Shown in pieces: positions 1 to 25,205 of a DNA stretch of 28,582 bases (positions are counted from its first letter, which is position 1; each line of letters begins with the position of its first letter). Below the pieces are notes generated by a model. That model worked only from the letters and a program-made list of their open reading frames with translations, did not search any database and was not told the DNA's origin. The DNA comes from a virus. Its lineage: Duplodnaviria > Caudoviricetes. The translations under genes and the position numbers were made by a program. The stretch covers positions 1 through 28,582 of IMG/VR virus record IMGVR_UViG_3300006947_000062. One strand, 5' to 3'.

Positions 1-438
1 ATGAAATACGATGAGGTAACAACTTTTGCGGCTTTGTATGCCATCACAAAAGACATGCTTGATTATCTGGAGATGAACAAAACTCTCAGAACGCAAGAAG
101 AAATTCAACATGCAGTATCAGTTTTGCTGAATGAATTTCCAGCGTATAAATTAGAGGAATGGAAAATTGTGATGGACAGATTCAAAGCTGGTTATTTTGG
201 CAACATGTATGAACGTCTAAAATTGCCAGAACTTAGGGATGCATTTTTAAAATTTGCAGATGAAAGATCAATCATGATGGAAAACAAATATCATGAGACT
301 AAAAAAATAGAACCAGAACCATTGTCTGAAGAACAGAGAAACATCATGAAGCAGATTGTAAAGGATCTTAAACTTCCAGAAGATGACACGAATCACAAAG
401 GTCGATGGAATCATATTCACCACCCACACACAACATAA
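1..438 (+). CDS. C-terminal part of a replication-associated protein (possible helicase loader/initiator partner); N-terminus at 28466-28582
   Basis: 145-aa ORF, in frame with the open 39 codons at the right end. It directly follows the replication initiator on the circle. Function is inferred from position only. Confidence 0.55.
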   Translation: MKYDEVTTFAALYAITKDMLDYLEMNKTLRTQEEIQHAVSVLLNEFPAYKLEEWKIVMDRFKAGYFGNMYERLKLPELRDAFLKFADERSIMMENKYHETKKIEPEPLSEEQRNIMKQIVKDLKLPEDDTNHKGRWNHIHHPHTT

Positions 439-908
439 TGAAATTAGAAGTATATAGATTCAATAAATCAAAAGAATCAACAAACGGAATCTTGTTTGAC
501 ATAACAAATGAAAAAAAATTTATGTGTTACACTCTGGAAGATGAACCAAGAAAAATCAAAGTAAAACATGAGACTTGTATTCCATCGGGTGAATATTGTC
601 TTGCATTGAAAAAGCATGGAAGATTGCATGATACATATCTTCACAGATTTGCTGATGTCCATGTTGGAATGATTGAAATTCTCAACGTGCCAAATTTTAC
701 AGATATTTTAATCCATTGCGGCAATACAGATGAAGACACTTCTGGTTGTTTATTAGTTGGAGACACACAAAAAAACAACAATATATCTGAGTCTGGTTTT
801 ATTGGTAAAAGTACTGTTGCATATTTTAGGATTTACAAAGCCATTTCTGATGCTTTAATGTCTGGAGAGCATTGCACACTTGTAATTACAAATGATATAA
901 ATATATGA
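438..908 (+). CDS. DUF5675-like protein (L,D-transpeptidase-like His/Cys motif; candidate cell-wall enzyme/endolysin)
   Basis: Motifs CYTLED, IPSGEY, VPNFTDILIHCGNTDEDTSGCLLVG. Start placed at ATG 438, which overlaps the upstream TAA (TAATG). Confidence 0.75.
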   Translation: MKLEVYRFNKSKESTNGILFDITNEKKFMCYTLEDEPRKIKVKHETCIPSGEYCLALKKHGRLHDTYLHRFADVHVGMIEILNVPNFTDILIHCGNTDEDTSGCLLVGDTQKNNNISESGFIGKSTVAYFRIYKAISDALMSGEHCTLVITNDINI

Positions 909-1312
909 GTGAACGTTCCAAAGCAAAAAATGCATGTGATAAAGCATTCAGCAGATTTGTGAGGTTGTCATGTGCAGATGAATATGGAATGATAAACTGC
1001 ATCACTTGTGACAAGCGCAAGATGTGGAATGAAGTTGATTGTGGTCACTTTCAAACCAGAGCAAAACTTTCAGTTAGATGGCTATATGAACCACCTTTGA
1101 TTAATGCATCTGCCCAGTGTAAAGGATGCAATATGAGTAATGGAGGACATTCGTATCAGTTCGGTAAGAAGATAGATGCTTTGTACGGCTCAGGGAGTGC
1201 TGATACAGTCGTTTTCATGTCTAATCAGATACGCAAGTACACAGTGCAAGAGTTAAGGGATATGGCAAGCTCTTTTGAAGCAAGAGCGAAAGCAATATTA
1301 AAAGAAATTTAA
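905..1312 (+). CDS. NinG/Rap-like HNH-type recombination endonuclease
   Basis: DKAFSRFVRL, CITC, DCGHF, QCKGCN zinc/HNH pattern typical of the lambda NinG family; ATGA overlap with the upstream gene. Confidence 0.8.
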   Translation: MSERSKAKNACDKAFSRFVRLSCADEYGMINCITCDKRKMWNEVDCGHFQTRAKLSVRWLYEPPLINASAQCKGCNMSNGGHSYQFGKKIDALYGSGSADTVVFMSNQIRKYTVQELRDMASSFEARAKAILKEI

Positions 1313-1873: not shown

Positions 1874-2198
1874 AAAAGTCGCAAAATTCACTGGCTTAAA
1901 AGCTGCTGTTGAATCCATCTTTGGAGAGGATTGTGGATGTAATGAAAGGAAAGAGAAATTGAATAAACTTTTTCCATTCAAAGCTCTGATGAGTAGTGAT
2001 GATCGTGCTCTATATGAAAAGCATTTGATTCACTGGAAGAAAGGAAAATCTGTGACAGCAACACAGCAACATCTGGCCATTGATATTTGGATCAGGAGCA
2101 CAAACAAGAAAAAGAAATTTTCAAGTTGCACATCTTGTGTCAGGAAATTCTTTGAGGATCTTGAAAAACTATATGAAAACAGCTGTGAAAATGAATAA
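1827..2198 (+). CDS. Conserved Cys-containing phage protein of unknown function
   Basis: SKGLGDTIEK...DCGCNERKEKLNKLFP and CTSC motifs; start uncertain (GTG 1818 or ATG 1827). Confidence 0.7.
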   Translation: MKSKNKPSKGLGDTIEKVAKFTGLKAAVESIFGEDCGCNERKEKLNKLFPFKALMSSDDRALYEKHLIHWKKGKSVTATQQHLAIDIWIRSTNKKKKFSSCTSCVRKFFEDLEKLYENSCENE

Positions 2199-3390
2199 AC
2201 CAATCAATACAATATTTGCTCATCCAAAGAATCCGCGTTTGATTCGCAATGAAAAATATCTGGAGCAAAAAAAGAGCATAGAGGAAACGCCTGAGATGAT
2301 GGATTTAAGGCCAGTGATAATTGATGAAGATGATATCATACTTGGAGGGCATCAAAGGTGGAGAGCATGCAAGGAATTAGGTTGGAAAGATGTTCCAGTG
2401 ATGCAATACACCAGAGAGAAACATTTGAAATCTGAATCATTCACTAAATTCAACAAAACATATGAGCTGGTTTGTGCTGAGATAGTAATCAAGGATAATA
2501 CACACTATGGAGAATTTGATTATGATATCCTTGCAAACGAATGGGATTACTTACCACTGACAGAGTATGGTGTTGCAGTCTGGGAAACTGAACCAGAAGA
2601 AGTTGAAGGATTGACAGATGAAGATGCAGTACCTGAAGCACCACAAGAACCGATAACTAAACTGGGTGACGTTTGGATACTTGGTGAACATCGGGTTATG
2701 TGTGGCGATTCTACGAGCAAAGAAGCGGTAGAGATTCTTATGGATGGGGAGAAGGCAGATATGGTTTTTACTGACCCACCTTATGGTATAGAATACAAAA
2801 GCAACTGGAAAAACAAAGACAGGGAGAAATTTAAAACTCTTAAAAACGACAATTTAATTTTAGACTTTAGGCACATATTAGATTCGTTTTGTAATGAGTT
2901 CTGCCCAATATACATATGGACATCACACCAAGTTTTCCAAATATGGAGAACGATGTATTCAGATATTTACAAGTCAACTATTATATGGTATAAGAAATTC
3001 GGGGGGATGGGAGATTTAAAAGCGGAATACGGACATAATTACGAGATGTGCCTATACTTAACAAAAAACAGAATAGAATTTGTATCAGATAGACCTAAAG
3101 CGGTTTGGGAAATAGGGGGAGATAGCCCTTCAAAATATCAACACCCAACACAAAAACCTGTTGAATTAGCAGAAACGGCTTTTTCACATCATAAGAAAGG
3201 CACAGTATTAGACCTATTCTTAGGTTCAGGTTCAACACTAATAGCAGCCGAGAAAACAAAGCGCAAATGTTACGGAATGGAATTAGACCCGAAATACTGC
3301 GATGTAATAGTAAAGCGATGGGAAGACTTTACTGGTAAAAAAGCACACCTTGAAGAAAACGAATTTGAAGTAATAACACAAGCGCACTGA
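2191..3390 (+). CDS. ParB-like N-terminal domain fused to a beta-class N6-adenine/N4-cytosine DNA methyltransferase
   Basis: N-terminal HPKNPR...LRPVIID...ILGGHQRWRA (ParB-N). Catalytic FTDPPY, then HPTQKPVEL and SAM-binding VLDLFLGSGST (motif IV before motif I = beta class). Start 2191 or 2173 is more plausible than 2080. Confidence 0.9.
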   Translation: MNKPINTIFAHPKNPRLIRNEKYLEQKKSIEETPEMMDLRPVIIDEDDIILGGHQRWRACKELGWKDVPVMQYTREKHLKSESFTKFNKTYELVCAEIVIKDNTHYGEFDYDILANEWDYLPLTEYGVAVWETEPEEVEGLTDEDAVPEAPQEPITKLGDVWILGEHRVMCGDSTSKEAVEILMDGEKADMVFTDPPYGIEYKSNWKNKDREKFKTLKNDNLILDFRHILDSFCNEFCPIYIWTSHQVFQIWRTMYSDIYKSTIIWYKKFGGMGDLKAEYGHNYEMCLYLTKNRIEFVSDRPKAVWEIGGDSPSKYQHPTQKPVELAETAFSHHKKGTVLDLFLGSGSTLIAAEKTKRKCYGMELDPKYCDVIVKRWEDFTGKKAHLEENEFEVITQAH

Positions 3391-15760: not shown

Positions 15761-16333
15761 ATGCCGTGTTTACTTACAAAAGCCATAGGACTAAACTGCA
15801 AAGACACAGTTGGTGGAATCAAGGCAATTTATTTTAGTGACTTTCAAGTGGCTGGATATTCTGAAATGACATTTGCTTCTGGTGTTTTAACTGGAATCGG
15901 TGTTGCTCAACAAGTGTTCAGATACGATGTGCAGCCAAATACAGCTTCACTGACTACAACTGTCACTAATGAACCAGCTGGATCTGCATCATTTGATTCA
16001 GCTCTTGAGATTACTTTAAATATCTTGAAGCAATCAACATCTGATGAATTGCAACTGTTAATCCAAACGAGAGTATTTGCGTACATCTTGGATGCGAATG
16101 ACAATGTGTACTGCATTGGACTTCAAAATGGATGCACAGTGACTGGTGGAACGTTTGTCACTGGTCAAGCTAGAGCTGACATGCAAGGTTATACACTAAC
16201 TGTGACAGCTGGTGAAGGTGAATATCCTCCATCTATTACAGCAAGTGATTCATCTGATGCGGCTGCATGGCCATTTGACGGTGTAAATGCTGGAGCTGGA
16301 GCTGCTGACTTTACTGTGACGAATCCAACATAG
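15761..16333 (+). CDS. Major tail (tube) protein
   Basis: 190 aa; NCKDTVGGIKAIYF, TGQARADMQGYTLTVTAGE; shares a terminator with the capsid gene, as expected for a high-copy subunit. Confidence 0.7.
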   Translation: MPCLLTKAIGLNCKDTVGGIKAIYFSDFQVAGYSEMTFASGVLTGIGVAQQVFRYDVQPNTASLTTTVTNEPAGSASFDSALEITLNILKQSTSDELQLLIQTRVFAYILDANDNVYCIGLQNGCTVTGGTFVTGQARADMQGYTLTVTAGEGEYPPSITASDSSDAAAWPFDGVNAGAGAADFTVTNPT

Positions 16334-16410: not shown

Positions 16411-19400
16411 ATGATTCAACTTACAAAAGGAACAAACACACTTGATATCAATCTCAGTGATTTCAGTGGTGCATCTGATGAGTTGGTTCAAAATGGGCAA
16501 TTCACTGACATTGGGCCAAACACAGTCAACAATGGTTCTTTCAATGAGACAGCAGCTGTCAATCTACTCAATCCAAACTTTAATGACATAGGATCTGAGC
16601 TTGTAACGAACGGAGATTTTAGTGCTGTTCCATTAGGTAGTGAGTTAATTCTTGACGGTAATTTTCCTTCACCAAATGAACGTTGGAGTAATGAAACGGG
16701 TTGGTCGATTGGAAGCAACGTGGCAAGTTATAACGGAACCTCTGCAAATAACGCCATATCGCAAAACAGAGGAGTCATTATTGCTGGTAAGACCTATCGC
16801 TTGTCTTTTACTGTTTCAAATTATCAAAGCGGAACTTTAGTTGGTGCATTAAGTAGTGGTTCTTTAACTGGAAACACTCCAGACATAACAGCAAACGGAG
16901 CGTATTCTTTTGATATTGTTTCAACTGGTGTCTTGTGTATTTTCAGAAGTACATCCAGTTTTCTTGGCTCAATCGGTAATGTATCAGTAAAAGAAGTACT
17001 CAACATTGTCACAAATGGTGACTTCAGTGAAATAGGAACGCAGCTTGTCACGAATGGTGACTTTAGTGGTGTTACTGAGTACGTTGGTACATGGTCAACA
17101 ATAGGCACAGGGTGGACTTTATCGGGGTCAAATTTAATAGGCTCATCAGGCACAACTGAAAACCTTCAAACTATTTTTGCCACCGCTGTTTCAAGAACTT
17201 TAAGGCTTTCTTATGAAATAACAAACTACAGTAGCGGACAAGTTGCGATGTTAATGGATGGGGAATCTAAAACCTTTGAAAGTGCAAACGGAATTTACAC
17301 CAGAATTATCACCACGACTTCACAAATTTTAGAAATAGACGGCAGAGATTCAGACCCATTTACAGGAACTATAACAAACATTTCTGTTAAAGAACTTGGC
17401 GAGGGGTGGACGGCAACAAATGCTGTGTTGTCTTTTGCAAATAGCCAGATGACGGTTGACGATTCGGGTGATGCGGGTGATGACTCTCGAGGTACTCAAA
17501 TTATTACAACTGAAGTAGGTAAAATTTACAATTTATCTTATAATAGAATTTCAACAACTGGGTTTTTTTATTTAGCTGTAGGAAGTAATGACACGGACAG
17601 CGATGGTTATAAAAATATATTTTACGAGAATTTAGGTGCATCAACGGGAGTGTACACGCTTCAATTTACGGCACTCAGCACAACAACTTACATAGGTTTA
17701 ATAACTTCAGGTATTAGTGCAAGTGTTTACTCTGATGTATCTGTTAAAGAGGTCGGACAGAATTGGACACCATCCACTAGTTTAGATGGGAATATTCAAT
17801 TTACTGCACAAGGTTTAAAGATTAGTAACGGAGCATCAAACGGACAGGCAAAAGTAACACAACCGTCAATATTTGAAAATGGCAAAACCTATAAATTCAA
17901 ATATAAGATAGTTGCATACAATGGTGGGGATATTGGTTTAGCTGGTGAATCTTCAGCGATGTCCAGAATCCCAGGTGACCATGTTGAATACCTTACAAGA
18001 TCAGGTGATACAACAGATTTTGTACTTGGTAAAGCAAATGATAATACTGATGTAACTGTAACAAACATCTCAGTTCAAGAGCTTGGAACGGATTGGACAC
18101 TTCAAGATGGTTGGAGTATTGGAGAAGATAAAGCGGTATGCGATGGCTCACAAACAGCTCAAAGTTCCTTATTCCAATTAGGAATTGTACCAAAATTCAA
18201 ATCTTATAAAGTCGTTTTTGATATTGTGGTAGATGCTGGTAGTATGATTGTCGCGGTAGGGGGTTCCAATGCACAGCCCACAATTACATCTACCAACACA
18301 TATACATATTACACACAAGCTACTCAAGGAGATCCTAATTTATATTTTTCTGCTCAGACTAATTTTGTTGGTTCAGTAACAAACGTAACAGCTAAGGAGG
18401 TCGGACAAAATTGGACAGTACAACAGCCAGCTGGACAATTGGTCACCTTTCCAAATAGCACACTGAAAATTGAATATGATTCAACACAGACGCAAGGATC
18501 AACTGGAGTGTATCAAGATATTCTAACGATTGGAAAGAATTACAAAATTGTTCTCAGTGTTATATTAGTTACTGGAACTTTCAAAATTCAGGTAGGAAGT
18601 AAACAAAAAGATATTACGACATCAGGCATCCATGAATTTTATACAGAAGCGGAAAGTGACAGATTATTTATTGTAAGGAGACAAAATTCTCTGAGCGTCA
18701 CAGCCGTTGTTGACACAGTATCAGTCACAGAACTTGATCCAAATTCTTACTGGAATATACCAGATCCAGCCACAACTCAAATTGCAACAAATAAAGTTGA
18801 GATAACAAATGGAATTGGTGCTGTGATTACTCAATCAGGAACGGAAAGCTCACAATATTTCAGGATGCAATTCACTGTTTTAGATTATGTTTCTGGAGGT
18901 GTTAAAGGCTTCGTTTCAAATAATCTTGCAAGCTCATATGCTGAAAGTGATGGAGTAAAAATACAATATATTCAAGGCGGTGGAAATGGAACTCTGTTTG
19001 CTTTGTTTTGTAATGCATTCACTGGAAACGTCACAAATATTCAACTCAATTTATTAGATCCCAATTCAAGATGGATTCCATATACAGTTGCAGCATCAAA
19101 AGTTGTTTTTAAATTTGCTGAAGTAGATCTTGAAATCAGTGCTCTTGGTGATGATGTTGGAATTATTCAAACTGGTATTATAAAACCAAAAAAAATATAT
19201 ATCATTAGCATCAGCATGAAAGCAACAGCTGCTTTAAATGTTGAGATTGCAACATCTACATTGTCAGTTATCAGTGAGGTGATTGCAACACAAGCCATCA
19301 CAACTTCATTTGTGGAGTATTCTTTTGAATTTATACCAACATCAACCACAACAAAAGATTTCTTGATTCATAGGTCTTTAGGATCTGGAAATGGTGAAAC

Positions 19401-19827
19401 AATTTCAATCAATTCTGTCTCAATAAATAGCGTTGATGAAAGTCAGTGGATTAATGATCCAGCATGGAATCCATTTGCAACTACATTGACCTTTGTACCT
19501 ACATTAACAGATGAATCAACCAACAACTCAAAGCAATTTACACTTGATACATCCATAACTGATGGCGGTTTTGATGGTCGTAGTTTACATGGTCAAGTTG
19601 TTGTTAATGATACACAAGCAGAAGCTCCAAATGCTGGAATCATATTCCTAAAACAACCAGAATTTTTGGAGGGATTTTATAGTGTAGAGATTCGTGGCTA
19701 TCTTGGCACATATTACAGAGTTCTTGGAAAAGGCATGGCACACCTTCAGAGAGCTTTAGGGGAGGACGGATACAACAGATTCGAATCATACAATGATAAA
19801 GTAACATACAAGGCTTATGAAGAATAA
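16411..19827 (+). CDS. Giant virion protein with eight CBM/galactose-binding-like beta-sandwich repeats (putative adhesin/receptor-binding appendage)
   Basis: Repeated ELVTNGDF-type openers and eight ~105-125-aa bodies that start with W and end in N(I/V)SVKE(L/V)-like strands; non-repeat N- and C-terminal ends. Confidence 0.75.
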   Translation: MIQLTKGTNTLDINLSDFSGASDELVQNGQFTDIGPNTVNNGSFNETAAVNLLNPNFNDIGSELVTNGDFSAVPLGSELILDGNFPSPNERWSNETGWSIGSNVASYNGTSANNAISQNRGVIIAGKTYRLSFTVSNYQSGTLVGALSSGSLTGNTPDITANGAYSFDIVSTGVLCIFRSTSSFLGSIGNVSVKEVLNIVTNGDFSEIGTQLVTNGDFSGVTEYVGTWSTIGTGWTLSGSNLIGSSGTTENLQTIFATAVSRTLRLSYEITNYSSGQVAMLMDGESKTFESANGIYTRIITTTSQILEIDGRDSDPFTGTITNISVKELGEGWTATNAVLSFANSQMTVDDSGDAGDDSRGTQIITTEVGKIYNLSYNRISTTGFFYLAVGSNDTDSDGYKNIFYENLGASTGVYTLQFTALSTTTYIGLITSGISASVYSDVSVKEVGQNWTPSTSLDGNIQFTAQGLKISNGASNGQAKVTQPSIFENGKTYKFKYKIVAYNGGDIGLAGESSAMSRIPGDHVEYLTRSGDTTDFVLGKANDNTDVTVTNISVQELGTDWTLQDGWSIGEDKAVCDGSQTAQSSLFQLGIVPKFKSYKVVFDIVVDAGSMIVAVGGSNAQPTITSTNTYTYYTQATQGDPNLYFSAQTNFVGSVTNVTAKEVGQNWTVQQPAGQLVTFPNSTLKIEYDSTQTQGSTGVYQDILTIGKNYKIVLSVILVTGTFKIQVGSKQKDITTSGIHEFYTEAESDRLFIVRRQNSLSVTAVVDTVSVTELDPNSYWNIPDPATTQIATNKVEITNGIGAVITQSGTESSQYFRMQFTVLDYVSGGVKGFVSNNLASSYAESDGVKIQYIQGGGNGTLFALFCNAFTGNVTNIQLNLLDPNSRWIPYTVAASKVVFKFAEVDLEISALGDDVGIIQTGIIKPKKIYIISISMKATAALNVEIATSTLSVISEVIATQAITTSFVEYSFEFIPTSTTTKDFLIHRSLGSGNGETISINSVSINSVDESQWINDPAWNPFATTLTFVPTLTDESTNNSKQFTLDTSITDGGFDGRSLHGQVVVNDTQAEAPNAGIIFLKQPEFLEGFYSVEIRGYLGTYYRVLGKGMAHLQRALGEDGYNRFESYNDKVTYKAYEE

Positions 19828-22257: not shown

Positions 22258-22397
22258 AACCAAACAAGCGCACCAGAGCTAATATCAGAAAATTAAAGAA
22301 ATATATTAAGAAACATGGCAACCAAGAAAGTTACACAATTAGCAACAGCGACAAGTGCAGATGCAGCGGATCTTGTGATGATTGTAGATGTAAGTGA
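22254..22397 (+). CDS. Small basic, Cys-tailed overlapping ORF (47 aa)
   Basis: ATGA-coupled to the adaptor gene; MKPNKRTRANIRKLKKYIKKHG...KCRCSGSCDDCRCK; overlaps the next gene by 83 nt. Confidence 0.4.
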   Translation: MKPNKRTRANIRKLKKYIKKHGNQESYTISNSDKCRCSGSCDDCRCK

Positions 22398-22869
22398 CAC
22401 AGCGATGTCACCAGAGGGCACGAATAAAAAAATCACAAAAGCAAATCTGATAACTGGTGGAGGAAGCAGTGACGAATTTTTCACTGTGAATGGTGCTTGT
22501 TTTATTGGACAAACATCTGAAAGAGCAATTCCATTTGGATCTACAACAGCAGAATCTACAGTCTTCACATATACAAATGTTTTTGCAATACCTAAAAATT
22601 GTCGTTTGGTATCTGTCACATCTGCAAGTCAAGTGAATGGTGGATCTGTTGACTTGAAACCATACAAACCAACTTCAGATATCAACTTATCTAATTTTAC
22701 AGCACTTGGAACTGTAAACGTTGCAAGCCATACCAACTCAGGAACACACACATTCACCTTCAATACATCAACATTCGATTATGTTGTTGGTGACAGATTC
22801 GGAATTTCAGTCACTCCATCTTCAAACATGAGTGGATTCCGTTACACTTGTTTATTTAAAATGACATGA
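22315..22869 (+). CDS. Short fibre/virion accessory protein
   Basis: N-terminal MATKKVTQL...DLVMIVD...NKKITKANL fibre-anchor-like motif, GGGS linker, then a beta-rich C-terminal domain. Confidence 0.6.
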   Translation: MATKKVTQLATATSADAADLVMIVDVSDTAMSPEGTNKKITKANLITGGGSSDEFFTVNGACFIGQTSERAIPFGSTTAESTVFTYTNVFAIPKNCRLVSVTSASQVNGGSVDLKPYKPTSDINLSNFTALGTVNVASHTNSGTHTFTFNTSTFDYVVGDRFGISVTPSSNMSGFRYTCLFKMT

Positions 22870-24177: not shown

Positions 24178-24303
24178 CAAATAGAAAGAGAGCTACAGAA
24201 AGCAAGGTTTTCAATCCTCATTTTGGTGCAGCTCTCAACTAAACAGATAACAAACTGAATGGAAACAGCAGAAATCTGGTCAAATATACATCTAAATTTA
24301 ATC

Positions 24304-24329
24304 AACTCACTTCATGTGGGTTTTTTTTT
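24304..24329 (+). terminator. Rho-independent terminator closing the late region
   Basis: Stem AACTCAC / GTGGGTT, loop TTCAT, T9 tract at 24321-24329. Confidence 0.7.
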
Positions 24330-24389
24330 GCTCTAAATTCTCCAGTAAACACTAGGAAATCAAAGAAAGATTAAAGAAAATACAACAGT

Positions 24390-24423
24390 TTTGTAAAAGG
24401 GTACAAGTAAACGTGTATCTTTG
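24390..24423 (+). promoter_or_regulatory. Bacteroidota housekeeping-type early promoter (TTTG ... TATCTTTG)
   Basis: TATCTTTG at 24416-24423 matches TAnnTTTG. TTTG at 24390-24393 gives a 22-nt spacer, slightly long. AT-rich upstream region; heads the small-gene cluster. Confidence 0.65.
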
Positions 24424-24427
24424 GAGT

Positions 24428-24646
24428 ATGAATAACGCAAACAACAACAAAATGAAAAATTCTAAATTAACAACAACACAAAAAATATTTGTGGAAACTC
24501 TAAAGGAATACACTATAAAAACTGGTCATGGTTTTACAGCTCAAACAAATAGAGCAAGAACAATAGAATCATTAATAAAAAAGGGTGTTATTAAGTTGGT
24601 AGAAAGTCCATTTTGCAAAGGCAATGAGTTAGTAGAATTAATTTAG
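24428..24646 (+). CDS. Early hypothetical protein (possible winged-helix)
   Basis: LTTTQK...RTIESLIKKGVIKLV; start at ATG 24428 or 24452 because the track start 24413 overlaps the promoter. Confidence 0.6.
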   Translation: MNNANNNKMKNSKLTTTQKIFVETLKEYTIKTGHGFTAQTNRARTIESLIKKGVIKLVESPFCKGNELVELI

Positions 24647-24647
24647 T

Positions 24648-24779
24648 ATGAACATTCAAGACTTTTTAACTCCAGAGCAATACGAAGAACAATTGCAAGA
24701 ATATAACAAACTGGTAAAAAATAATGAAATCACATTTTTTCAATTTTTAACTGAAACCTATAAAATCAAATCAAAATGA
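24648..24779 (+). CDS. Early hypothetical protein (43 aa), not in the ORF track
   Basis: MNIQDFLTPEQYEEQLQEYNKLVKNNEITFFQFLTETYKIKSK; fills the gap, with ATGA overlap downstream. Confidence 0.55.
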   Translation: MNIQDFLTPEQYEEQLQEYNKLVKNNEITFFQFLTETYKIKSK

Positions 24780-24988
24780 AAACAGATCTAAAAGACAAAC
24801 TTCAGTATCTAAGACAAGAAGCAGAGAAAGAGGTTGTGTACTATCGCAACCGAATGATTGAAGCAGAAGAAGAAGGAGCTGGAAAATTTAGCTTTGAGTT
24901 TTATCAATCTAAACACAGCGAATCAAAAGCATATCTATCTGGCATGATGGACACACTGAATGCAATATCTCAACATCAAGCAGAATGA
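24776..24988 (+). CDS. Early hypothetical protein
   Basis: 70-aa ORF coupled to both neighbours. Confidence 0.65.
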   Translation: MKTDLKDKLQYLRQEAEKEVVYYRNRMIEAEEEGAGKFSFEFYQSKHSESKAYLSGMMDTLNAISQHQAE

Positions 24989-25158
24989 AGGATCAGTTGA
25001 TTCATATGCTCACAAGACTGGACACAGCATGTTACAGATGCACTCCATCTGGGCCTTATGAACATGAACAGCCCAAGTTCAGATCTGATCTATATGATGT
25101 TTACAATAAACTCAGTGAGGCGGATCTTGAAACATTAATTAATATCAGAACAAAGTAA
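24985..25158 (+). CDS. Early hypothetical protein (57 aa), not in the ORF track
   Basis: MKDQLIHMLTRLDTACYRCTPSGPYEHEQPKFRSDLYDVYNKLSEADLETLINIRTK; ATGA overlap; CxxC motif. Confidence 0.55.
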   Translation: MKDQLIHMLTRLDTACYRCTPSGPYEHEQPKFRSDLYDVYNKLSEADLETLINIRTK

Positions 25159-25205
25159 TACTTTGTAAATGTATTTGTATCTTCACCATCTAAACAGACA
25201 CAAAA

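Follow-up and report, generated by a model that had tools for sequence, protein, structure and literature searches.

Recursive domain insertion is defined as the arrangement A1-B1-C-B2-A2 (PMC13114784). In Si3 of the cyanobacterial RNA polymerase (RNAP) subunit beta', one small beta fold is inserted recursively in itself and forms a branched, elongated arm (PMC10895346; PMC13114784); its six-level nesting is the extreme in a 2026 survey of 2.7 million domains (PMC13114784). RTX adhesins contain split domains, where the chain exits an Ig-like domain after the first strand and comes back to it once a ligand-binding domain has been formed, with up to three heterologous levels (PMC12077191). Among phage structural proteins, evolved Dit and Tal of Gram-positive siphophages carry carbohydrate-binding modules (CBMs) in a loop, in a LEGO-like combination of modules (PMC9437275), and contractile tail sheath proteins show a Russian-doll order of domains with variable outer ones (PMC6088184). 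Here, we analyze P0001, a protein of 1138 amino acids (aa) encoded on the virus record IMGVR_UViG_3300006947_000062 (Duplodnaviria; Caudoviricetes; 28,582 nt, hereafter the window). Matched counts, level-wise loss and linker co-variation among homologues, together with one modeled domain, lead us to conclude that eight CBM4/16-like beta-sandwiches are very probably nested as a tree in the first loop of a small host domain.

Composition of P0001

The initial annotation, made from the letters of the window, had divided a CBM-like repeat into short openers, which correspond to first strands, and longer bodies. Its positions all hold: seven canonical openers start at 16480, 16519, 16561, 16597, 16642, 17002, and 17041, and the Trp codons of the body starts lie at 16684, 17092, 17407, 17764, 18094, 18412, 18751, and 19072. 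A hidden Markov model (HMM) profile iterated from the P0001 bodies also recovers eight bodies. The segment INLSDFSG, proposed as a possible eighth opener, was rejected. INLSD aligns with the empty proteins found at this locus and is therefore part of the host domain, and homologues that share this N-terminus are balanced even if it is not counted. Instead, the degenerate EYVGT (aa 223-227) just ahead of body B serves as opener eight; it is needed for balance in four of four proteins with that tip (P0001, P0021, P0034, P0151). The protein parses as O1 O2 O3 O4 O5 A O6 O7 O8 B C D E F G H, i.e., eight openers and eight bodies, for which the topology O1(O2(O3(O4[(O5 A) O6(O7(O8 B)C)D]E)F)G)H is very probable. 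Its depth amounts to seven CBM levels plus the host, and no parsed relative exceeds seven.

An assembly artefact as the origin of P0001 is ruled out by a second contig (L007) and by identical pieces from run X2. L007 contains the same open reading frame (ORF) with one difference in 3417 nt and possibly stems from the same sampling campaign, and the X2 pieces, which derive from another study, bridge O1-O4, O5-A-O6-O7, and C-D-E-F with zero differences, none of them covering the whole gene. Searches of P0001 against Pfam (0 families at E<=0.1) and PHROGs yielded nothing, and the protein fails the gathering cut-off of PF02018 (CBM4_9). This cut-off is passed by 3 of 12 homologues scanned (P0004, P0043, P0074), whose matches cover the model from position 2 onward and start on the innermost opener.

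Opener and Body Counts in Homologues

In a first search, 8000 candidates were scored and 129 proteins retrieved, of which 120 were listed. The clade set comprises those 48 of 149 proteins that have a host-like N-terminus and more than 400 aa. The parser combines a regular expression for openers, a rule for degenerate openers and the body profile. In its first version, counts were equal in 39 of the 48 clade homologues; after adjustment, 44/48 were balanced (r=0.98; shuffled mean 12.9), with rules tuned on these same proteins. Canonical openers alone correlate with bodies at r=0.89. The four unbalanced members include two parser errors (P0024, P0100), one protein that ends mid-body (P0044), and one true exception (P0042). 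Domain counts range from 3 to 10, in at least 15 different bracket words.

The rules were then frozen and applied to 128 new proteins from a profile search, in which 127 blocks with stacked openers were found and 49 near protein ends were dropped. Among the remaining blocks, 53/78 are balanced versus 21.9 expected by shuffling, the maximum in 10,000 shuffles being 35. Fourteen of the 25 failures were inspected by eye; 12 of these are due to missed or false openers, one is a true orphan (P0159), and one is jumbled (P0274). The co-variation of the two counts that the initial annotation had suggested as a check is thus present in the tuned and in the held-out set.

In nine proteins (P0004, P0019, P0021, P0034, P0036, P0037, P0043, P0061, P0151), a second nest occupies another loop within a body, and tree-shaped proteins result. 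This insertion site follows the second Trp hairpin of the body, is marked by the motifs 'QALG[SG]' (outgoing) and '[AS]TSYL' (return), and holds a balanced nest of its own; in P0004, P0021, and P0034, the inner nests balance by themselves. P0001 has a single branch, as predicted earlier: O5 and A form a contiguous CBM-like domain in the structural model, and this unit is gained or lost as a whole among homologues, e.g., P0005 versus P0010.

Order of Pairing

Nested domains had been expected to pair last-in-first-out (LIFO), a principle that receives support from junction motifs, linker lengths and the modeled domain O4+E. Under LIFO, the AEIGS-type opener meets the EV-GQxW return junction in 24 of 24 cases. 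Both elements are missing in P0017, P0033, P0062, P0074, P0100, and P0112, where the neighbouring levels are kept. This joint loss argues for LIFO, since first-in-first-out (FIFO) pairing would drop a different junction. Furthermore, a four-residue outgoing linker pairs with a two-residue return linker in 8/8 informative cases under LIFO and in 1/8 under FIFO; this class was defined after seeing the cases, and five of the proteins are related. An earlier, narrower test of linker lengths was uninformative, and the mutual information of linker classes barely separates LIFO (1.40 bits) from FIFO (1.25 bits), because most proteins are collinear.

In P0168, an opener is fused directly to a return junction, as if an inner domain had been excised and had left the expected scar. 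Geometry would favour LIFO as well, since only a few residues separate the tip domain from the body that follows it, and this body could reach no opener but the nearest free one. Altogether, the two halves of a domain are gained and lost together in LIFO order, with two complete proteins as exceptions. The pairing obtained by this comparison is O8-B, O7-C, O6-D, O5-A, O4-E, O3-F, O2-G, and O1-H; the pairs O7-B and O6-C given in the initial annotation had to be corrected in view of the eighth opener and the O4-E model.

Predicted Structure

AlphaFold2 (AF2) was run on P0001 with a 52-sequence alignment and reached a pLDDT (predicted local distance difference test) of 66 and a pTM (predicted template modeling score) of 0.39. 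Over residues 60..665, the top structural match is the porphyran-binding CBM16 8XMZ (Z 13.4, 118 residues aligned, rmsd 2.3); the same range also matches 2ZEY, 3OEB, and the phage tailspike CBM 8IQ9. In the model, O4 and E, 490 residues apart, form one CBM16-like domain, and under LIFO this pair requires eight openers. Domain A (74-198) and body H (880-1008) match CBM16/CBM4 at Z 12-13, and rows 22..1007 and 22..1026 connect O1 with H at low confidence. The model regions 74-198, 60..665, and 880-1008 take the shape of jelly-roll beta-sandwiches, a fold that in CBM4_9 and CBM16 spans some 120-145 residues and brings the termini together; bodies C, D, F, and G are of low confidence, F and G being also under pLDDT 50. 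Overall, fold matches reach Z 12-13.4 and rmsd 2.3-3.0 at 9-19% identity to the best structures, in agreement with the CBM-like beta-sandwich proposed earlier. The top-ranking folds comprise modules that bind porphyran, mannan or xylan, together with CBMs from phage baseplate and tailspike proteins (8IQ9, 9EUF).

A discontinuous inner domain is found for O4+E only and weakly for O1+H; the other openers are unplaced. The structural evidence covers one level, and the remaining levels rest on sequence comparison. A second AF2 model, of the five-level P0010 (40 sequences), contains two structural rows, 55/56..299, which are only loosely compatible with LIFO. CBMs of this fold bind carbohydrate via an aromatic cleft. 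The calcium site that we take to be typical of CBM4_9/CBM16, between first loop and last strand, would comprise an acidic residue after NGxF and an Asp of the last strand; inspected by eye at these presumed positions, both are mostly absent in P0001.

The Host Domain and its Empty Relatives

Shorter relatives comprise 29 proteins, 17 of which have 136-139 aa. These empty relatives correspond to residues 1-20 plus 1025-1138 of P0001, with 61% identity over 114 aa. At 16 viral loci, the same gene slot harbors an empty gene (5 loci) or a nested one (11 loci; 670-1138 aa where complete), and the proteins neighbouring this slot are mostly 74-94% identical to those of the window. Judged by these alignments, the whole nest is a single insertion in the first loop of a 136-139-aa host domain, which adds an eighth level, missed in the initial annotation, to the seven CBM levels. 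Insertion of each domain after the first strand of the preceding one, the core of the original proposal, is likewise supported by the matched counts and the modeled O4+E. Empty alleles are common and abundant among relatives and metagenome runs, which indicates that the nest arm is dispensable.

The host domain belongs to no family found in Pfam, PHROG, PDB (by sequence) or ESM Atlas. A PDB search by sequence gave nothing significant. Foldseek against BFVD returned viral proteins that bear no function label, among them one 136-aa host relative. ESM Atlas matches are viral clusters, one of which has CBM_4_9 on 13% of its members.

Exchange of Bodies between Phages

Among 16 six-domain homologues, the host, openers 1-3, and the basal body show a median identity of 90-92%, versus 25-30% for all other bodies. 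The P0001 bodies B, D, E, and C are 99, 93, 83, and 80% identical, respectively, to bodies under other hosts or at other positions; compared to each other, they are only 7-35% identical. The main DNA repeats are the junctions, which form a 33-nt family.

Runs X4 and X10 (two studies) contain contigs with 98-99% identity to the window from the gene start, the match stopping at 17057 inside O7. In X4, it resumes at 18072, at the end of D, across a joint with just 30 letters on one side. We infer that the X4 pieces belong to one strain, and their pattern would fit a one-step replacement of three tip bodies. Missing cover over body C in runs X3, X4, and X10 is no proof of its absence.

The Same Nest in Tail Proteins

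The nest also splits tail terminators, where PF11367 scores above its cut-off in five of five tested. Their genes were recorded at loci L024-L044. Tail terminator lengths of 130, 259, 363-420, 514-537, and 863 aa form a ladder of 0, 1, 2, 3, and 6 domains, respectively (14 distinct complete ORFs at 25 loci), and P0158 is a tail terminator with five domains. A balanced parse is obtained for 11 of the 14; in the remaining three, degenerate openers that fit the length can be seen.

The nest further splits the family to which gp10 of Nonlabens phage P12024S, a putative tail fibre, belongs as the empty form. The gp10 gene (L018:6549-8216) is assigned to PHROG 5939 (tail protein), and its marine relatives combine three-deep nests with single domains. 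A split host with uninterrupted relatives, as recursive insertion implies, is consequently found at the P0001 locus, in tail terminators and in the gp10 family. The family profile matches 6887 clusters at 50% identity; nesting was assessed in the best 150 of them.

Proposed Mechanism

In the preferred topology, each sandwich would be split after its first strand and would hold the next domain in that loop. The chain would run out along the first strands and back through the bodies, so that two linkers tie each level to the next. As each level would advance one opener step of 12-14 residues, the arm would be a compact domain spine and not an extended fibre; its contour would not exceed about 29 nm and is probably far below that. 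Openers and junction motifs would act as a near-constant scaffold, with the conserved junctions as the sites where recombination exchanges bodies, as the strong mosaicism suggests. Any body would accept any generic first strand, and the inner levels would lie in one contiguous DNA stretch, so that one double crossover could swap or resize the tip.

The position of the gene between a tube-like gene and the portal gene, plus the occurrence of the nest in tail terminators and the gp10 family, points to a link with the virion. The host domain would fix the arm there in low copy; its gene follows a terminator and overlaps the portal gene. The bodies may bind surface glycans of a marine Bacteroidota host or an algal polysaccharide. 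That P0001 is both nested in this manner and a virion adhesion arm seems to us somewhat better supported than its opposite, and we lean, to about the same degree, towards a host domain that anchors a low-copy virion arm whose domains provide multivalent, variable glycan binding.

The most general version of this proposal, to which we assign slightly less than an even chance, is a topology-preserving diversification: a self-nesting CBM cassette in which constant first strands and junctions serve as scaffold and recombination points. Binding bodies would be exchanged, and one step each would suffice to extend the arm, to branch it at either of two loops or to take it away. The cassette would have spread into several unrelated virion proteins, and the outer levels could fold only once their strands have been complemented across distances of up to about 980 residues.

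Alternative Explanations

Several observations weigh against the nested topology. The AF2 model of P0001, which had been suggested as a check, delivers O4+E as one domain, but leaves O1-O3 unplaced (aa 19-60 under pLDDT 50) at the low pTM of 0.39; its structural row 209..330 suggests that the model itself may put O7 on B. The P0010 model leaves all openers at pLDDT 30-45, and most bodies fold at 60-85. Two complete proteins are unbalanced, P0042 with six openers and five bodies and two ends from different host subfamilies, and P0159 with an orphan opener (8/7); the order is jumbled in P0274. The held-out set contains 25 failures, and counts over the whole protein agree in no more than 34 of 67 other-host proteins with stacked openers from the first search, a minority of which were inspected. 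These other-host proteins carry additional single domains of their own. In P0042, P0274, and P0179, ends of different host families are joined, or a break lies within a body; these proteins are either assembly chimeras at repeated junctions or real unbalanced recombinants.

Bodies that fold in AF2 models with their openers unplaced, and the rare orphan openers, would be expected if there were no nesting at all, i.e., if bodies were tandem domains, complete without the strand, and if the stacked openers made up a repeat of their own, disordered or solenoid-like. We regard this as very improbable, since counts co-track from 0 to 10 in several unrelated hosts, inner nests at the second site balance alone (P0004, P0021, P0034), level-wise co-loss and linker co-variation follow LIFO, and the Pfam CBM_4_9 model begins at the opener. 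The row 209..330, the low pLDDT at 225-229, and openers near-interchangeable in sequence would rather suit a nest in another register, with O7 completing B, or an oligomer in which near-identical openers complete the bodies of neighbouring chains. This, too, is improbable, if less so: with O7 on B, one body would have no opener in P0001, P0021, P0034, and P0151, and LIFO would give O4-D, versus the modeled O4-E. Moreover, F-[ST]GVT-E acts as an ordinary outgoing linker ahead of canonical openers in P0011 and P0050.

A more serious rival, though still an unlikely one, accepts the same nested topology and assigns it a non-glycan role, as spacer, shield or protein-binding decoration, the turnover of bodies reflecting neutral recombination or selection by other partners. 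The identity of 9-19% between the CBM-fold domains and their best structural matches and the common, abundant empty alleles of a dispensable arm fit this explanation. It sits less well with the homologues that pass the Pfam CBM_4_9 cut-off (3/12 scanned) and with the best fold matches, which are modules for porphyran, mannan, and xylan and CBMs of phage baseplates and tailspikes. Receptor-binding parts typically show diversity on a fixed scaffold, and the body diversity on the fixed scaffold described here resembles them.

Locus and Genomic Context

The window has a CheckV completeness of 97% and contains terminase, head protease, major capsid, and portal genes according to Pfam/PHROG annotation. 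The P0001 gene is situated between a gene of 190 aa, whose product we take to be tube-like, and the portal gene (Table 1). The context is that of a virion structural protein: the gene lies in the head-tail module, and the nest module also occurs in known virion proteins. The tube-like protein matches the designed beta-propeller Tako8 at the sequence level (E 9e-8), probably a composition effect. The terminator-like hairpin upstream of the P0001 gene is present, with stem variants, in nine of nine loci inspected, the window included, and sets the capsid and tube genes apart from the P0001 gene and the portal. A promoter scan at the locus found no surplus over shuffled sequence.

Table 1. Features of the P0001 gene and its upstream region (positions in the window).
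Feature	Position	Strand	Evidence and remarks
Tube-like gene	15761-16333		190-aa product; PHROG of unknown function
Intrinsic-terminator-like hairpin and U run, between tube-like gene and P0001 gene	16352..16390	+	14 pairs, -21.2 kcal/mol, z -5.9
Whole ORF (P0001), 1138 aa	16411..19827	+	no internal stop; stop overlaps portal start at 19817
Host domain, two N-terminal strands (aa 1-20, incl. INLSD)	16411..16470	+	matches N-terminus of 136-139-aa empty relatives; AF2 strands 2-5, 7-14
Opener O1 (aa 24-31), level 1, partner H	16480..16503	+	weak model support, rows 22..1026 and 22..1007, pLDDT ~34
Opener O2 (aa 37-44), level 2, partner G	16519..16542	+	putative pairing, from bracket order; unplaced by AF2
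Opener O3 (aa 51-57), level 3, partner F	16561..16581	+	putative pairing; unplaced by AF2
Opener O4 (aa 63-70), level 4, partner E	16597..16620	+	structural-alignment rows 60..665, 60..664, 61..664, 61..666 vs whole CBM chains
Branch domain O5 + body A (aa 78-197), contiguous complete CBM-like domain	16642..17001	+	model region 74-198 matches CBM16/CBM61
Opener O6 (aa 198-205), level 5, partner D	17002..17025	+	putative pairing
Opener O7 (aa 211-218), level 6, partner C	17041..17064	+	near-identical strains of two runs diverge inside, at 17057
Tip domain, degenerate opener O8 (EYVGT, aa 223-227) + body B (aa 228-329), level 7	17077..17397	+	99% identical to P0021 tip
Body C (aa 333-448)	17407..17754	+	body HMM; 80% identical to body of P0035 (other host)
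Body D (aa 452-558)	17764..18084	+	body HMM; 93% identical to P0021 body at different position
Body E (aa 562-664)	18094..18402	+	pLDDT 79-91 by block; with O4 completes CBM16-like domain in the model
Body F (aa 668-775)	18412..18735	+	body HMM; low pLDDT
Body G (aa 781-882)	18751..19056	+	body HMM; low pLDDT
Body H (aa 888-1008), basal, family-conserved	19072..19434	+	model region 880-1008 vs CBM4 1GU3, Z 12.9; median identity 92% among 16 six-domain homologues
Host domain, C-terminal part (aa 1013-1138)	19447..19827	+	61% identity over 114 aa to empty 139-aa relative P0130

The only cultured matches of the capsid protein are the Nonlabens phages P12024S/L (27% identity, 4 records), which show a similar gene order of capsid, tube-like gene, small gene, and portal. 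On these grounds, the host of the window phage is presumably a member of the Bacteroidota. The Nonlabens phage protein gp05, encoded at the equivalent gene position, was considered as a relative of the host domain and discarded, as it gave no score against the host profile. The P0001 gene occurs in metagenome runs classed as marine, seawater or sponge (20 rows, 10 studies). P0001 had no match in 50,697 GenBank phage records, the empty host protein gave only noise (E~0.6) against GenBank phages, and GTDB genomes contained no relative and hence no prophage that would name a bacterial host.

Elsewhere in the window, the C-terminal part of a 184-aa gene (22315-22869) varies, its relatives matching mostly only the first 45-60 aa. 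It scores weakly with the body profile (E 0.01) and with Pfam Lectin_like (E 0.06), and one may ask whether it is a candidate for a second variable, lectin-like appendage. A ParB-like domain fused to an N6/N4 DNA methylase lies just ahead of the terminase genes (2080-3390), and about 1 kb at 24180-25200 is free of any ORF of at least 80 aa.

Comparison with Known Systems

The initial annotation did not recognise this architecture from described phage adhesins. In the main texts of openly licensed papers and preprints, no account was found of CBMs nested in CBMs in phage proteins, nor of exchangeable bodies at variable depth, although the Si3 supplements and the tables of the ECOD survey may list further deep nests; same-fold recursion as such has already been published for RNAP Si3. 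Nor did P0001 show the RTX repeats or type I secretion context of an RTX adhesin; it has no Pfam hit and belongs to a virus record.

The closest resemblances differ in kind. CBM4_9 (PF02018) and CBM16 (8XMZ, 2ZEY, 3OEB, 1GU3) share the fold and the N-terminal xLVxNGxF strand, but P0001 shows 9-19% identity to them, lies under the Pfam threshold, and its domains are discontinuous. With the tail sheath proteins, P0001 shares the insertion of one domain within another in a phage structural protein; there, however, two to four dissimilar domains are involved, which are neither homologous repeats nor CBMs. The split domains of RTX adhesins provide the same exit after the first strand and return; these are secreted bacterial adhesins with host and insert of unlike folds and no self-recursion. 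Evolved Dit and Tal share the CBM insertion in a loop of a structural protein, which there projects glycan-binding modules. Their CBMs are described as inserted singly on long linkers or arranged in tandem, rather than within one another; moreover, the P0001 host is not recognised as Dit or Tal, and its gene is located beside the portal.

If the candidate function is correct, the nest would offer a host-range mechanism for abundant uncultured marine phages and a possible way to vary what the virus sticks to. Domain annotation fails on it, as the lack of any Pfam hit shows, and so does AF2 when alignments are shallow. Multivalent binders could also readily be designed on its principle, a beta-sandwich arm that is doubly linked, can be extended and accepts exchangeable bodies.

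Si3 parallels P0001 in recursive same-fold insertion and branches, the likeness being one of topology only. It is a sandwich-barrel hybrid motif in the trigger loop of an intracellular enzyme and of fixed architecture, whereas P0001 matches CBMs and belongs to a phage morphogenesis module. Its seven CBM levels plus host would exceed the six-level extreme given in the 2026 survey. In contrast to Si3, depth in the phage nests varies from 0 to 7 among close relatives, bodies are exchanged, and several unrelated virion proteins are affected. With 0 to 10 domains, close relatives form a natural series in which the steps of recursive insertion can be read from populations, and tested.

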